DNA of 32,000 bases, taken from positions 1,121,836 through 1,153,835 of the forward strand of contig NC_014537.1 of assembly GCF_000148385.1 (NCBI RefSeq), in the 5' to 3' direction. Below, in pieces: positions 5,516 through 10,764 of the stretch. How positions within the stretch are numbered: position 1 is the stretch's first letter; every line of letters begins with the position of its first letter. The stretch comes from Vulcanisaeta distributa DSM 14429. GTDB lineage: Archaea; Thermoproteota; Thermoprotei; Thermoproteales; Thermocladiaceae. The notes under the pieces are model-generated. The model was not told the origin of the DNA, did not search any database, and saw only the letters and a program-made list of their open reading frames with translations. Position numbers and translations under genes: made by a program.

Positions 5516-6110
5516 CGTAGTTAAGTAGCGCATTCGCTATTAACCTTGCCACCCTAATTGGCTCAGGCCTCTTACCCTCCCTAACAAACTTCCTGATTAT
5601 CGTCCTAGCAGTCCTATAATCAATTCCTGCAAACCTCACATAAATCCTCAAACCACCAGGTAACAACATCTCCCTAGGCTTACCCAACTTCTCATAAAGC
5701 CTCACCCTCACGTCCGAATCACTTGGAAACAACTTCCTCAGCGCATTTACGACATCACCCTCAGGCTCCTCGAAGGTCAGGCACATTATTGGCAAGCCCA
5801 GCTCATTCGACAGCCTCTCCAGGTCGATTATGTTGTACCAGGATATTATACACCCATCAATCATTATCAACTGAATGTCATTCCTACTAAACGACCTGTA
5901 CAGACTTATTACAGCATCCGTAGCATCTAAACCACCAACGGTAGTTCTACCCAACGACACACCATCAATAACACCATCACTCCTCATGACAACACCAACC
6001 AGTATTGAATACCTAAGATCCAGCCTAAAGCTCTCGGCAATACCAAGGGCCCTTACGCCAGGCTTACTAACAAGCGCGTCAATACCCATACTATCCCAAT
6101 CACGTAGCAC
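5502..6110 (-). CDS. DUF99/UPF0215 family protein (archaeal endonuclease-V-like fold).
   Basis: 'RALGIAESF...ILVGVVMRSDGVIDGV...TVGGLDATDAV...IQLIMIDGCIISWYNIIDL' matches the conserved UPF0215 pattern (GIDDSF-like N-terminal motif, 'DG' core). The ORF starts with a GTG at 6110. The ATG at 6089 ('MGIDALV...') is a plausible true start, given the TATA-like 'ttataa' around 6124-6133. Confidence 0.65.
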   Translation of the reverse strand: MLRDWDSMGIDALVSKPGVRALGIAESFRLDLRYSILVGVVMRSDGVIDGVSLGRTTVGGLDATDAVISLYRSFSRNDIQLIMIDGCIISWYNIIDLERLSNELGLPIMCLTFEEPEGDVVNALRKLFPSDSDVRVRLYEKLGKPREMLLPGGLRIYVRFAGIDYRTARTIIRKFVREGKRPEPIRVARLIANALLNYVRAP

Positions 6111-6210
6111 TCTATGCCTGTTATAATACTTAACGCAAATGCGCAGTCAATCATTACGGGTATTGATCCCTGGAATTTACAGTAATGATTCTCATAGGTG
6201 ACCTCAATCA

Positions 6211-7875
6211 TTAAGTAATTTGAATAACTTTACCGTATTTACATGCATATGTCTGCGGGCTCCCATAGTAATTGGTTGCATTAAGTATAAAGCCGAATGT
6301 GGGTAAACCATAGACCTGAGACGCATCAACTACCGAGACGTATAGATTTGTACCAACACCAATATTGAAGAGCTCAACCCACGTGCTCTGTGTTGTTGAT
6401 GAAGTTGATGGAGGCAACAGCATACCCGCAATGCTAAATATGGCACTACCCATGCTTAATAAGATTTCGAGAGGCTCAGAATTAGGTATTAAAGCGGCTA
6501 ATCCAAGGGCTATGCCCGTGAGCCCAGTGCCGAGCTGTGGCGCACTTAAGCCGTATGCAGTGTTAATACCGCCGAGCTGTATTTGGTATTGCCCACTGAC
6601 TATGTTTACGGGCCCATTACATTCATAGAGATATTCAGAGCCTGTGGTCGTGTATTCAAAACTGGCATAATCAATCACGGACGACGCATTTAAGGCGGAG
6701 TAACCAAAGTACCTCTCGGCTAATGGTACGGCACCGTAATACAGCAAACTTATTGTGCCGTTACCATAGTCAAGAGCGTAACCATAAGCGTCGTATTCAG
6801 GTACGTAGAGCACTTCGGAAACGGTAGTTGAGCCCAAGTACTGTGTGTATCCAGTCGTTGGATCAACGTACCAAGCATCATACTGAACAATGGCCCAAGT
6901 GGCATCTTCATAGTAGTAATATATGGAGCCTGGCACATTCACCTGTGAACCAAGCACGTACTCTGCGGTATTACCAACCCAATTCTCCTGGGTACTATAG
7001 GATGTACCTATATCTCCGTAGCCCACGGCCATGGCATTCCAATTGATTGTGCCCGAGAAGTAAATAGCCAATGTGATCCCGAGCCCCTTATCATAACTTA
7101 ACACGCCATTACTCCACGTGATCCAAGCCAGTGGTAGTGAGCCATTTATGCCCAGGCATGTTGATTCCGGTATAAATTCGTAGGGTAGCGGCATGTAAAT
7201 ACTCGGCTGAGGACCACTCACGGAACAATTATAAAGCACGTAACCGCTATACGATCCAAAGACCTGAGGATCAGTCATGTTGGGTATATGGTTCATAGCT
7301 ATGATCCTAAATGGCTTAATTGAGCTTACGTTTATGTATACCGTGGCCAATATGTACATGGGCGTAATGCCAGCCGCTAGGCTAGGCCTTTGTGCTGCCA
7401 GGGCCCAGCCTACATTGTATGGTACTACCATGGGTATTATCCAGGACTCATTATCGTGGATGTACGTCACAAACACTAGTAATGAAGTGTCATAACCATT
7501 CACCGGCATTTTAGTCTCGAGCCACTTATTCACGGCATATGCCCAGTCAGTATTGTTAAATGGTACGGTGACCGAACTACCGTAGGCATACATCACCGGC
7601 ATTATGCCGTTTGGTAGGTTCACGTAAACACTGATGAAGGCATTTACGGGTGTTATTGAGGATCCGTTAATGAGGTACGTCCTAATCACCACGCCGGGCA
7701 GCATGCCCCTTATTGGTGGTGAGCTGTAATACGTTATCGTGCCCGTACTAACCCTAATCACCTGCGCAGGGCTTGGCTGAAGCGTTACTACATCCAGTGT
7801 AGAAAGTAGTATTGAGACTGTAGTGATTATTAGTATGGCCATTGTTATGAATGCTAACCTATGCCTCGTGATCAT
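6211..7875 (-). CDS. Predicted secreted or membrane-anchored surface (glyco)protein, Tyr/Gly/Asn/Ser-rich (554 aa). Paralog of the downstream-adjacent gene.
   Basis: An N-terminal signal-anchor 'LAFITMAILIITTVSILLSTL' is present. There are about ten N-X-S/T sequons. A C-proximal pair of hydrophobic segments reads 'GLTGIALGLAALIP...GSAIFSIAGMLLPP', followed by an S/T-rich linker and a beta-like tail. The gene has its own AT-rich promoter, with 'atatatat' about 22-28 nt upstream of the ATG at 7875. Confidence 0.7.
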   Translation of the reverse strand: MITRHRLAFITMAILIITTVSILLSTLDVVTLQPSPAQVIRVSTGTITYYSSPPIRGMLPGVVIRTYLINGSSITPVNAFISVYVNLPNGIMPVMYAYGSSVTVPFNNTDWAYAVNKWLETKMPVNGYDTSLLVFVTYIHDNESWIIPMVVPYNVGWALAAQRPSLAAGITPMYILATVYINVSSIKPFRIIAMNHIPNMTDPQVFGSYSGYVLYNCSVSGPQPSIYMPLPYEFIPESTCLGINGSLPLAWITWSNGVLSYDKGLGITLAIYFSGTINWNAMAVGYGDIGTSYSTQENWVGNTAEYVLGSQVNVPGSIYYYYEDATWAIVQYDAWYVDPTTGYTQYLGSTTVSEVLYVPEYDAYGYALDYGNGTISLLYYGAVPLAERYFGYSALNASSVIDYASFEYTTTGSEYLYECNGPVNIVSGQYQIQLGGINTAYGLSAPQLGTGLTGIALGLAALIPNSEPLEILLSMGSAIFSIAGMLLPPSTSSTTQSTWVELFNIGVGTNLYVSVVDASQVYGLPTFGFILNATNYYGSPQTYACKYGKVIQIT

Positions 7876-7900
7876 TGTTATTGAGTTATTTTATCTAATA

Positions 7901-7920
7901 TATATTAATTTATATTAATT
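7901..7920. repeat. Exact tandem duplication of the 10-bp unit 'tatattaatt' in the promoter region of the 554-aa surface-protein gene.
   Basis: Bases 7901-7910 and 7911-7920 are identical. The duplication overlaps or abuts the predicted TATA region for the minus-strand ATG at 7875. Confidence 0.8.
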
Positions 7921-7975
7921 TAATGTATTATTTTATTTGATGCATATCGCCGAAGCCGAGGAATACGTGTCTTCC

Positions 7976-9769
7976 CTACTTATTGCAGTAGATGCCTCCT
8001 AGATAGGGCTGTGTCGAATTTATGATTATGCCCACGGGGAATGTCTCACTACTCACTGAGCCATAGCTATACTTTATGGGTGTTCCGTAAAACGCCACGT
8101 AGTATGCTGAGCCATAATTAGCGACCAGGTTAATTACGGTATTGAAGTAGAAGAATGACGAGGAGCCCGGTGGCGGAACCATGAGACCAGCTATGCCAAG
8201 GGCCACGGATGTTGCCAGACCAGCCAGGAATTGGTTACCGCCAAATATCGTGGCTATGCTTGAACCAACACTTGGATAGGCAAGGATTAAACCGGCTATG
8301 AATAAACCTGCCTCTGCGGCTACTCCATATGGGTTGGGATTGAATGTTGATGCCGCCACACTCAGTGAGAAGTAGCAGCCTGATGACGTACATGTTATAC
8401 TGGGGCTTGATGTACATAAACCACTGTAGTGGTAATTGCCGTTACTATCCCTTGAAATGAAGACGTAGTCATAAACATAGTTTGGGCTAATTAAACCGAA
8501 TCTAGGCGCTACCTGGCTCATCATGAAGTTCATAATGCCATTACCGAGGTCAATGCCCGGCCATACCCACAGCACATTATTACGTATGGCGCCTGGTAGT
8601 AGGTTAATAACAGCCGTGGCGTTGGCATACTCATTAAGTGGATAGGTATAGCCGTTCTGATCGACGTAATAGCCCTCGAACTGTATTAAGGCCAGGGTAC
8701 CATTAATGCCTAAGTAAAGGAAGCCCGGTCCCCTATTGACGTAGTAATAAAGGTTCGGGTATGAGTACGATAACGAGGAGCTTGACGAAAATGCGAAGTA
8801 CACATAGACATTATCGACATAGTTATAGCCACTATAGCCTCCATAAATAGGCAGGTTACTTGAGAATTGCAGCGTTGGGCCAACAACCTCAAGTCCAGAA
8901 CCTGGAACATTGACAGCCCCATAGAGACCGGAGCCTTTTTGGGCATAACCACCTATACTCAGCACTATCCCGCCACCAATATTGTTGCTCCATGCATCCT
9001 TGCCCCAGGCAATCCACAGTATGGGTATTGAACCATTAAATCCAGCACAGGCACGTGGTTCCCAATAAACAATCCCTGTACCGGCGTAGATTGATGGTGG
9101 AGCGGCATTCAGGACATTACTACTTCCGAGGCAATTGTACGGTCCTACGAAGCCGTAGGGATCCACGGAGGGGCTCGCCATCAGTGATGAGGCATTTATT
9201 GCATTATGATTATAAATTATTCTTACCGGCGCTACCCTAGAGAAGTCTACGGTTAAGCTTATGACTATTGATGCGTTATTTATTATCCAGGTTGGGTTAT
9301 AGGGGATCGCCACCGCCACGGTCCTTGTCTCGTTCGTGGATTTGTCGAAGTACGTGATAAATGCAAGTATGGATGGCCACACAGCATCCGGCGGGTTTCT
9401 ATTGGAGGTCATGATTCTTATCGTCTCCTTAGCTATGTTAATTATTGGTTTTATAATTAAACTTACGTTTACCGAGCCGAATCCGTAGTAATAACCAACC
9501 GTGTAGATATGCCCTTCGCCAAGTGCAAATAGGCTGATGGTTAATGGGACTGGGTTATTATTTAGGTAGCCGTGAATAATGAGTATTGGCTTCCTTATGC
9601 CTGTTACATTATAATAATTGACCTGGTATGTATCAGTACTGATTATTATGATAGGTTTGGGGTTTACTGATTGGGCAAATGTATTGATTGCTATGAGCAT
9701 GGTCACGGTAATTATGGAAATAGCCAGTGCGATCATAGCTATGCCCTGTCTATGAATACCTATGGTCAT
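7976..9769 (-). CDS. Predicted secreted or membrane-anchored surface (glyco)protein (about 597 aa). Paralog of 6211..7875.
   Basis: It has the same architecture as its neighbour. The signal-anchor is 'IAMIALAISIITVTMLIAINTF'. Shared blocks include 'PSIY', 'C.G.NGS.P..WI.W', 'VNVPGS' and 'YVD..GYT', and the C-proximal segment is 'ALGIAGLMVPPPGSSS'. The ORF begins with a TTG at 9772 and the adjacent ATG at 9769 is preferred. Confidence 0.7.
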   Translation of the reverse strand: MTIGIHRQGIAMIALAISIITVTMLIAINTFAQSVNPKPIIIISTDTYQVNYYNVTGIRKPILIIHGYLNNNPVPLTISLFALGEGHIYTVGYYYGFGSVNVSLIIKPIINIAKETIRIMTSNRNPPDAVWPSILAFITYFDKSTNETRTVAVAIPYNPTWIINNASIVISLTVDFSRVAPVRIIYNHNAINASSLMASPSVDPYGFVGPYNCLGSSNVLNAAPPSIYAGTGIVYWEPRACAGFNGSIPILWIAWGKDAWSNNIGGGIVLSIGGYAQKGSGLYGAVNVPGSGLEVVGPTLQFSSNLPIYGGYSGYNYVDNVYVYFAFSSSSSLSYSYPNLYYYVNRGPGFLYLGINGTLALIQFEGYYVDQNGYTYPLNEYANATAVINLLPGAIRNNVLWVWPGIDLGNGIMNFMMSQVAPRFGLISPNYVYDYVFISRDSNGNYHYSGLCTSSPSITCTSSGCYFSLSVAASTFNPNPYGVAAEAGLFIAGLILAYPSVGSSIATIFGGNQFLAGLATSVALGIAGLMVPPPGSSSFFYFNTVINLVANYGSAYYVAFYGTPIKYSYGSVSSETFPVGIIINSTQPYLGGIYCNK

Positions 9770-9876
9770 CAATATAATTCCTTAATAAGGGGCCTTTTAC
9801 TTTACTTTTTTACCTTTACTTCGGTTATTCATAAAATTTGAGTCGAATTAAATTAAATAGAATTTAAGTAACTACG

Positions 9877-10764
9877 TTAGACCCTCGGCTTTAAACCCAG
9901 CCTTATTAATCCATCCCTGAGTTTCTGCACCTCGGCCTCACTTAACGGCCTTAGGTATGGCTCCTTAACAGTTCCAAAATCATAACGGAGTAAGTGGACT
10001 AGCCTGTAGTAACCATCAACGCCTGGGTAATCCCTAATTAGCTCCCTAACCTTGGCTATAAGGTCCTGCTTCTCCATGGCGGACTGCAACCTACCGGCCC
10101 TGAAGTCATTGAACATCTCCCTCATGACCTCCGGAAGTACATTAGCCATCGCCGATATGCAGCCCTTTGCCCCAACCATGAGCGCAGGCAGTATTGTGGA
10201 GTCTGCACCATTAAGTACCGTTATACCTAGCCTAACGTGGCCCATTATCTGCGTTATGTCGCCAGTACTATCTTTAACACCCGCTATTTTAACGCCGTCA
10301 CTGAGCAGCCTCGCTATTAGGTCTGGCGTTACATTAAAGCCCGTGTTCTGCGGTATGTTGTAAATAAATATTGGTAACTTCGTTAATTGAGACAGCTTCT
10401 CGTAATACCTCCTCAGTGTTTCATAATCCGGCCTATAGTAGGTTGGCGGTATTGATGAGATGGCCACAGCGCCATACTTCTCGGCGAGCCTCACGGTCTC
10501 CACCACGTCCTGCCAATTAAATGAGAAGACGTGGACCATCAACTGCCTATTCGTATTCCTGGAAATGACCTCCAGGGCTTCCCTCCTCTCCTCAAGTGTT
10601 AGGTATGGTCCCTGGCTGGTTGTGCCAAATGGGTAGAAGCCGTCAACGCCTGCCTTCGTTAATGAGTCAACGTGCCTTGCGAGGGATTCCTCGTCTAATT
10701 TACCGTTTTTAAAGGGTATTGCCAGTGCTACGAATATGCCCTCCATCGTAGGTATTCGGCACAA
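9877..10764 (-). CDS. DapA/NAL-family class I aldolase, most likely a 2-keto-3-deoxy-(6-phospho)gluconate aldolase-like enzyme.
   Basis: 'GVDGFYPFGTTSQG' corresponds to the GTTGE/GTTGLG motif. 'IFIYNIP' is present, and 'IAGVKDSTGD' carries the Schiff-base Lys. The length is about 290 aa. The ORF starts with a TTG at 10764. The ATG at 10746 ('MEGIFVALAIPF') sits about 25-30 nt downstream of TATA-like 'ttttattaag' on the minus strand and is the likelier start. Confidence 0.7.
   Translation of the reverse strand: MCRIPTMEGIFVALAIPFKNGKLDEESLARHVDSLTKAGVDGFYPFGTTSQGPYLTLEERREALEVISRNTNRQLMVHVFSFNWQDVVETVRLAEKYGAVAISSIPPTYYRPDYETLRRYYEKLSQLTKLPIFIYNIPQNTGFNVTPDLIARLLSDGVKIAGVKDSTGDITQIMGHVRLGITVLNGADSTILPALMVGAKGCISAMANVLPEVMREMFNDFRAGRLQSAMEKQDLIAKVRELIRDYPGVDGYYRLVHLLRYDFGTVKEPYLRPLSEAEVQKLRDGLIRLGLKPRV

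Follow-up and report, generated by a model that had tools for sequence, protein, structure and literature searches.

The envelope of the Thermoproteales is only now being resolved, and its colossal surface-layer (S-layer) protein was described in 2026. In Pyrobaculum, the layer is made of a 292-kDa protein with tandem immunoglobulin (Ig)-like domains, a C-terminal transmembrane (TM) helix and a basic tail ending in Lys, a space of ~37 nm lies under its canopy, and a homologue has been named in Vulcanisaeta distributa (bioRxiv 10.64898/2026.08.21.746120). We analyzed here two adjacent genes, A and B, in a stretch of 32,000 nucleotides (nt) of V. distributa DSM 14429, an archaeon of hot acidic springs (contig NC_014537.1, positions 1,121,836 to 1,153,835 of the forward strand; hereafter the window), which is part of a complete chromosome of 2,374,137 bp. 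In our best explanation, A and B belong to a dispersed family of non-enzymatic envelope glycoproteins with a structural or recognition-related role, a reading to which we give a rough probability of 0.55. The family would then be a genus-level set of candidate envelope glycoproteins with no recognised fold relative, with a conserved tail and a variable loop, and its members would be candidate occupants of the space beneath the S-layer canopy.

As the initial annotation had described, A and B are co-directional open reading frames (ORFs), each preceded by its own AT-rich region. Both lie on the minus strand, and the upstream regions contain TATA-like runs; each gene would thus have its own promoter. 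The start of B can be placed at a TTG (9772), giving 598 amino acids (aa), or at the next codon, an ATG (9769), giving 597 aa. The features referred to below are the following, in window coordinates, with N-X-S/T motifs called sequons, Kyte-Doolittle hydropathy abbreviated KD, AlphaFold2 abbreviated AF2, and pLDDT standing for the predicted local distance difference test.

6211..7875, minus strand: gene A (P0001), 554 aa, clade I; conserved Cys 217, 240, 419 and 545; 10 sequons
7777..7875, minus strand: A residues 1-33, basic N-terminus, then a hydrophobic helix of ~20 residues; KD 2.45; AF2 helix 2-26
6400..6555, minus strand: A residues 441-492, Gly/Ala-rich hydrophobic region in two segments, ending 'IAGMLLPPSTS'; pLDDT 26-34
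6214..6399, minus strand: A residues 493-554, C-terminal beta-rich tail with block 521-540, sequon N532 and C545
7876..7975, minus strand: AT-rich region upstream of A with TATA-like runs, carrying an 11-nt tandem repeat copy at ~7911-7921
7976..9772, minus strand: gene B (P0002), 598 aa, clade II; Cys 214, 242, 453, 461, 466 and 596; 9 sequons
9233..9655, minus strand: B residues 40-180, N-terminal beta-sandwich with a long helix (108-123) and the 'F.TY' and 'PYN' motifs; pLDDT 75-93
8150..8359, minus strand: B residues 472-541, Gly/Ala-rich double hydrophobic region; KD maxima 1.72 and 1.88; short helices, pLDDT <35
7979..8149, minus strand: B residues 542-598, C-terminal beta tail with invariant sequon N585 and conserved C596
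9773..9876, minus strand: AT-rich region upstream of B with TATA-like runs, separate from that of A
6090..9978, no strand: recombination tract, ~99% nt identity to Vulcanisaeta souniana (G082)

The V. distributa chromosome contains a separate ORF of 2,538 aa (G000:C1:821880-829493 (+)) with 7.5% charged residues, 62 sequons, a C-terminal TM helix and a basic tail ending in Lys, which fits a candidate for the colossal Thermoproteales S-layer protein. The likeness between this family (PySLP) and A/B lies in the organisms, the predicted compartment, the low charge, the sequons, the Cys residues, the beta-rich character and the divergence of exposed surfaces between relatives. However, PySLP proteins have ~2,500-2,700 aa (>2,000, in tandem Ig-like domains), whereas A and B have 554 and 598 aa with one N-terminal beta-sandwich and a larger beta domain. 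Also, the C-terminal TM helix and the Lys-terminated basic tail are missing from A and B, in which the last 55-65 residues are predicted to be a low-charge beta tail with a sequon, and no sequence similarity of the 2,538-aa ORF to A or B could be detected with the hidden Markov model (HMM) of the family. Since a separate S-layer candidate exists and is not matched by the family HMM, a main S-layer role for A and B is unlikely, and they would be at most accessory components of the envelope.

The S-layer anchors of the Sulfolobales (SlaB, Saci_1846) provide a second comparison. SlaB has a stalk formed by a coiled coil, and one TM helix at its C-terminus. A and B would resemble these anchors as medium-sized, Sec-exported, N-glycosylated, beta-rich proteins of acidophilic crenarchaea with a membrane-anchoring element, but they lack a coiled coil, and their hydrophobic element is internal, Gly-rich and variable, and is followed by a conserved domain of 60 residues. 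No sequence or fold match between these anchors and A/B was found. Archaeosortase/PGF-CTERM proteins, for their part, carry their tripartite signal (motif, TM helix, basic cluster) at the extreme C-terminus, whereas in A and B the hydrophobic region is internal and precedes a domain of ~60 residues, with no NCBIfam match.

Family members and their distribution

A and B align end to end and collinearly (BLASTP, 24% identity over 575 columns, E-value (E) 9e-17), so that the paralogy proposed by the initial annotation is real, though old. Its further proposal, a tandem duplication followed by divergence, did not hold. The V. distributa genome contains eight dispersed paralogues (A-H) and a few fragments; a search of all its ORFs with the family HMM, at E up to 1, returned nothing beyond these eight and one fragment. 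The nearest paralogues of A are C (55%) and D (37%); those of B are E (34%) and F (32%). Maximum-likelihood analysis of 43 full-length members placed A and B in the two clades that separate at the deepest split of the family, each supported at 100/100. A tandem duplication, if any, would thus have to be placed at the root of the family, and only in this form would a tandem origin hold.

Across Vulcanisaeta, B and A stay adjacent, with what we take to be a DapA-like gene on the B side of the pair and a UPF0215-like gene on the A side; the two names are read off the sequences alone. The A-type genes of Caldivirga are located elsewhere, with no B neighbour. The neighbours of the eight loci are unrelated housekeeping genes (ribosomal protein S17, a TatD nuclease, aconitase-type subunits, aminotransferases, an MscS-type channel), and the flanking ORFs share nothing meaningful from one locus to another; a conserved partner within an operon was rejected.

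Among the blocks that the initial annotation had listed as shared by A and B, 'F.TY ... PYN..W', 'C.G.NG..P..W', 'YVD..GYT', 'IAG....PP..S' and the Cys near the C-terminus are homologous and found family-wide. Two others were not retained as such: 'RII..NH..N' is common to A and B but not conserved across the family, and 'VNVPGS' is probably a coincidence, as it occupies non-equivalent positions of the two proteins in both the BLASTP and the MAFFT alignments. The family-invariant residues (B numbering) are T140, Y141, P157, Y158, P182, C242, G247, P250, Y353, D408, G410, G412 and N585. They are almost all Gly, Pro, Cys, Trp, Tyr or Asn, with a single Asp and no constellation of catalytic type, which points to a structural protein and not to a catalytic one.

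This bears on the possibility of an enzymatic function outside the cell, in which A and B would be secreted to act on extracellular polymers, for example as glycoside hydrolases or proteases. The proteins are probably exported and of suitable size, and the invariant Asp stands in a 'D.GNG' motif. Against this, the invariant residues are those just described, there are eight divergent paralogues with no linkage to metabolic genes, and no match was obtained in Pfam, NCBIfam or PDB even at E up to 1-10. We regard an enzymatic function as very improbable.

The profile search found the family in only 58 clusters among 1.84 billion representative proteins. Among 120 genomes of the class, matches were confined to three genera: Vulcanisaeta (11/12 genomes), Caldivirga, which belongs to the same taxonomic family (3/6), and a third genus from a neighbouring family (2/9), with 1 to 11 matched stretches per genome, fragments included. 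The lineage restriction anticipated by the initial annotation is thus borne out. Such distribution also bears on a role as accessory S-layer subunits, in which A and B would be anchors, plugs or stalk-binding partners of the colossal protein. Their composition is like that of the S-layer candidate, their size suits the ~37 nm described under the Pyrobaculum canopy, and the family is kept in most Vulcanisaeta genomes. However, it is absent from the genomes presumed to be Pyrobaculum (0/18) and from most other Thermoproteales sharing the colossal protein, which argues against an obligatory S-layer partner. Moreover, the number of stretches varies widely, copies are lost or fragmented in some assemblies, and none of the eight V. 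distributa copies is linked to the S-layer gene. An accessory S-layer function therefore appears unlikely to us.

No known relatives of A and B were found. Scans against Pfam and NCBIfam gave no match, searches of PDB by single sequence and by family profile returned nothing below E 0.7, and the sole match in PHROGs was a family of unknown function at E 0.15. There was thus no match to a characterised enzyme or transporter family in Pfam, NCBIfam or PDB. The annotation is hypothetical in every source, and no searchable paper names the orthologues of V. moutnovskia and C. maquilingensis (VMUT_2033, VMUT_2034, Cmaq_0117).

The family could also have originated from a virus or a mobile element, for instance as envelope proteins of an integrated element. 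In favour of such an origin, it is multi-copy, dispersed, strain-variable and locally exchanged between species. But no relatives were present among 2.9 million viral contigs or the phage records, PHROGs had none either, all copies are located among housekeeping genes with no integrase or repeat signature noted, and synteny is stable within the genus. A viral origin was thus rejected, and we find an origin from any mobile element hardly credible.

Several smaller observations concern the members of the family and their surroundings. Three metagenome contigs (L037, L038, L040) carry ORFs of 193-199 aa that match the N-terminal domain only (profile positions 3-175) and are either stand-alone N-domain proteins or truncated genes. 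Paralogue G (G000:C1:1070594-1072395 (+)) is split into overlapping ORFs of 240 and 456 aa, and short family fragments occur at 1191750-1192174, 2084935-2085159 and 2248395-2248616 of the genome; the split paralogue and the fragments are probable pseudogenes. At the G locus, V. souniana is ~3 kb shorter than V. distributa. Paralogue D (G000:C1:682141-683730 (+)) lies between the genes of the large and small subunits of an aconitase-family enzyme, beside a LeuA-like synthase gene, and was apparently inserted into an amino-acid biosynthesis cluster. Adjoining paralogue F, an ORF (G000:C1:991011-992672 (-)) encodes a low-charge, Ser/Thr/Tyr-rich protein of 554 aa with an N-terminal TM helix, a Cys near the C-terminus and no Pfam match. 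Its candidacy as a hidden family member was rejected (hhalign probability 0.2), and a word-search of the profile built on the paralogue alignment gave nothing new. The DapA-like gene beside B appears in four Vulcanisaeta assemblies (L023, L024, L025, L031) as two overlapping segments breaking at about residue 200, which could be a shared frameshift or a recurrent sequencing error. An apparent cross-genus transfer, in which a Caldivirga protein is 86% identical to a 'V. thermophila' protein, was also discarded, the downstream flank being 81-85% identical as well.

Predicted export, glycosylation and fold

Both proteins begin with the hydrophobic, signal-anchor-like helix that the initial annotation had recognised (19-residue KD maxima of 2.45 in A and 2.74 in B). 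In A, the helix is followed by a small-residue site (S-P-A before Q), and residues 1-33 are predicted to be a Sec-type signal peptide or a signal anchor. A class III signal peptide ([KR]-[GA] before the helix) was not recognised, as no Gly/Ala is conserved at this place in nine aligned paralogues and 'RQG' occurs only in B.

The share of charged residues is 7.9% in A and 6.8% in B, among the lowest 1-3% of the 1,026 long ORFs of the genome (median 23.4%). The other ORFs at this extreme are polytopic membrane proteins, the S-layer candidate and ~25 moderately hydrophobic, sequon-rich ORFs. The Tyr/Gly/Asn-rich, sequon-dense composition pointed out earlier is thus real but, together with the richness in Ser/Thr and the low charge, not special to A and B, being common to ~25 other predicted exoproteins of the genome. 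The many sequons of A and B (10 and 9) are matched across the family, with a mean of 11.5 against 6.2 expected from composition (1.9-fold). Several of them are also fixed in position: in A numbering, N70 is occupied in 93% of the members, N142 in 98%, N244 in 98% and N532 in 100%, on both sides of the hydrophobic region. Four Cys are conserved in the family (A 217, 240, 419 and 545). Because of the N-terminal helix, the low charge, the fixed sequons and these four Cys, the family is very probably exported and N-glycosylated. The earlier view of lineage-specific, unclassified envelope proteins is reasonable in this light.

The AF2 model of A, obtained with 61 sequences, reached a pLDDT of 52, and that of B, with a 108-sequence alignment of both clades, a pLDDT of 62.7 and a predicted template modelling score (pTM) of 0.65. 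The only confident part of the B model is the N-terminal beta-sandwich with one long helix (40-180, pLDDT 75-93). Beyond residue 180, the model has a larger beta domain with strands of up to ~20 residues, low-confidence short helices in the hydrophobic region and a beta tail. Foldseek searches of both models against PDB and BFVD gave no match at E <= 1e-3, the A model returning generic beta-sandwich noise. Thus, the models are beta-rich and have no structural relative in these databases, and the fold is either new or too poorly modelled to be recognised.

Taken together, we propose that A and B are anciently diverged members of a multigene family with 8 copies here, and that the proteins are non-enzymatic, exported, N-glycosylated, disulfide-stabilised and beta-rich. 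Their probable place is the envelope of Vulcanisaeta and Caldivirga cells, either beneath the canopy of the separate colossal S-layer protein or inside it. The chain would consist of a Sec-type signal or anchor helix, a beta-sandwich N-domain, a larger long-stranded beta domain, a variable Gly-rich loop and a glycosylated beta tail of ~60 residues, probably joined to the body through a disulfide (C419-C545 in A); C217-C240 is a second predicted disulfide of A. The loop of A and B would be long enough for a helical hairpin dipping into or spanning the membrane, spanning being no requirement for the family. The role is most likely structural or one of recognition at the cell surface, for example as an adhesion or receptor-type interface, and would fit a copy number that varies, alleles that have been replaced and genes recently exchanged between species. 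In short, this is a probable archaeal envelope glycoprotein family of an ordinary kind, previously uncharacterised.

Three points weigh against this interpretation. Crenarchaeal cytoplasmic proteins may also carry disulfides, and a sequon is no proof of glycosylation. The low to moderate AF2 confidence (pLDDT 52 and 63) and the lack of a structural relative make the fold and the domain borders provisional. Finally, the gene-wide ratio of nonsynonymous to synonymous divergence (dN/dS) is ~0.1 for A and B, as for their neighbours, so that there is no direct signal of the diversifying selection that the initial annotation had suggested looking for and that a recognition role could have left. Gene-wide positive selection was rejected on this ratio; the ratio of 1.25 obtained when B is compared with V. 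souniana comes from about four differences only.

The hydrophobic region and the C-terminal tail

The C-proximal double hydrophobic segment had been presented as an unusual shared feature of the two proteins. The long form is indeed present in A and B, but it is not a trait of the family. By hydropathy, both segments of B are TM-like (1.72 and 1.88); in A only the second is (1.89), the first being weaker and Gly-rich. Family-wide, no other part of the protein varies as much or contains as many gaps. Of 61 aligned members, 29 have a region of just 29-30 residues with a single weak stretch that is hydrophobic and Gly-rich, and in 5 of these 29 short forms the hydropathy of the region is near zero. 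In 14/61 members the region has 56 residues, 8 of which are acidic. By contrast with this variability, the best-conserved block of the whole protein lies in the tail that follows (A residues 521-540, entropy 0.33).

Since the region is short or acidic in so many members, a two-pass membrane hairpin cannot, judging from the alignment, be what defines the family. We prefer to see in the region a Gly-rich loop or helical insert, prone to indels, that separates the body from a conserved and presumably external tail. Its length and lack of charge in A, B and C would allow membrane insertion.

It may still be that A and B themselves are anchored by a true two-pass TM hairpin close to the C-terminus that leaves both ectodomain and tail on the outer side of the membrane. 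The TM-like segments of B and, in part, of A speak for it, and the long uncharged double segments are kept in the orthologues of A, B and C. Also, the tail has an invariant sequon and no basic cluster, which would call for an even number of membrane passes, and the acidic residues of other members could be protonated at the acidic external pH. On the other hand, a single weak stretch of 29-30 residues cannot cross the membrane twice, the near-neutral hydropathy of five short forms and the eight acidic residues of 14 members are hardly those of a hairpin, and the region is the least conserved of the protein and has the lowest AF2 confidence. We therefore hold a true hairpin in A and B to be possible but doubtful, and keep to the description as a variable loop in an envelope glycoprotein.

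High-identity tracts shared with Vulcanisaeta souniana

A tract at ~6,090-9,978 of the window, which covers A, B, both promoters and the ends of two neighbouring genes, has ~99% identity to V. souniana (genome of 2,432,148 bp), compared with 65-85% in its flanks. The tract contains 43 differing positions, of which 20 cluster at 6964-7159 and 11 correspond to a single 11-nt indel (~7911-7921). This indel is an extra copy of an 11-nt TATA-like repeat in the A promoter (7901-7921), lacking in the V. souniana tract; its presence inside a near-identical tract indicates a very recent duplication. Against V. souniana, the synonymous divergence (dS) is 0.05 for A and 0.003 for B, compared with 0.56 and 1.9 for the flanking genes on the A side, presumably the UPF0215-like gene and the membrane-protein gene beyond it. 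Such values, far below those of the flanking genes, indicate a recent recombination between species and not a constraint at the protein level. The sharp borders of this near-identical tract suggest that homologous recombination moves these probable surface genes, which one would expect of molecules facing viruses, symbionts or neighbouring cells.

Other members show similar patterns. C is a gene-sized island 93-97% identical to V. souniana and E one of 91-99%, whereas no island is found at H (74.6%). The two genomes are mosaic, with a median nt identity of ~81%. In a systematic 400-kb sample (16% of the genome), 12% of the 300-nt windows were >=93% identical and 5% >=97%, often in multi-kb tracts, and 21/214 ORFs were >=93% identical. 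The family has 3/4 shared loci in high-identity tracts (binomial P ~0.004; small numbers, post hoc), which is suggestive of an over-representation of its loci among recent exchanges. A general tendency of low-charge exoprotein genes to sit in such tracts was considered and rejected (3/14 against 18/200, Fisher P 0.15).

In Vulcanisaeta sp. JCM 14467, the protein identity is 82-92% for the flanking genes and 84% for B, but only 56-62% for the gene at the A position; this low identity beside well-conserved flanks and B indicates an allele replacement. A is missing or split in some draft assemblies, for which frameshift errors are a possible cause.

By analogy only, these features recall variable surface-protein families such as adhesin or receptor repertoires, with dispersed paralogues, copy-number variation, fragments, allele replacement and exchange between species. 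However, the A/B family has no repeats, phase-variation machinery or silent cassettes, and its dN/dS is ordinary (~0.1).

The exchange data also bear on the idea that the Gly-rich loop is a fusion-loop-like element inserting into membranes and that the family mediates cell-cell contact or fusion. The loop is Gly/Ala-rich, hydrophobic and flanked by conserved Cys, the central domain has long beta strands, and of the five family genes that V. souniana also has, four are located in tracts exchanged recently, compared with ~10% of the genes in the 400-kb sample. Class II fusogens and archaeal fusexins, whose beta-rich ectodomain has three domains with a fusion loop at the tip of domain II, resemble A and B in principle only, through a Gly-rich hydrophobic loop on a disulfide-stabilised, beta-rich ectodomain. 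In fact, Foldseek matched the models to neither fusexins nor fusogens of class I, II or III at E <= 1e-3 (PDB, BFVD), a result that is not decisive with models of pLDDT 52-63; the hydrophobicity of the loop is not conserved, being lost in several members; and high-identity tracts are common (12% of windows), the family counts being small and post hoc. We consider a role in contact or fusion highly unlikely. The extension of this idea, namely that the family promotes DNA exchange between co-occurring Vulcanisaeta species through contact or fusion, is likewise a very long shot; if true, it would explain why the A-B, C and E loci are among the tracts most recently exchanged between V. distributa and V. 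souniana. Our preferred explanation remains that of structural or recognition-related envelope glycoproteins.

As a last observation, the 5' part of the 2,538-aa S-layer candidate ORF and its upstream region also lie in a tract 93-99% identical to V. souniana.

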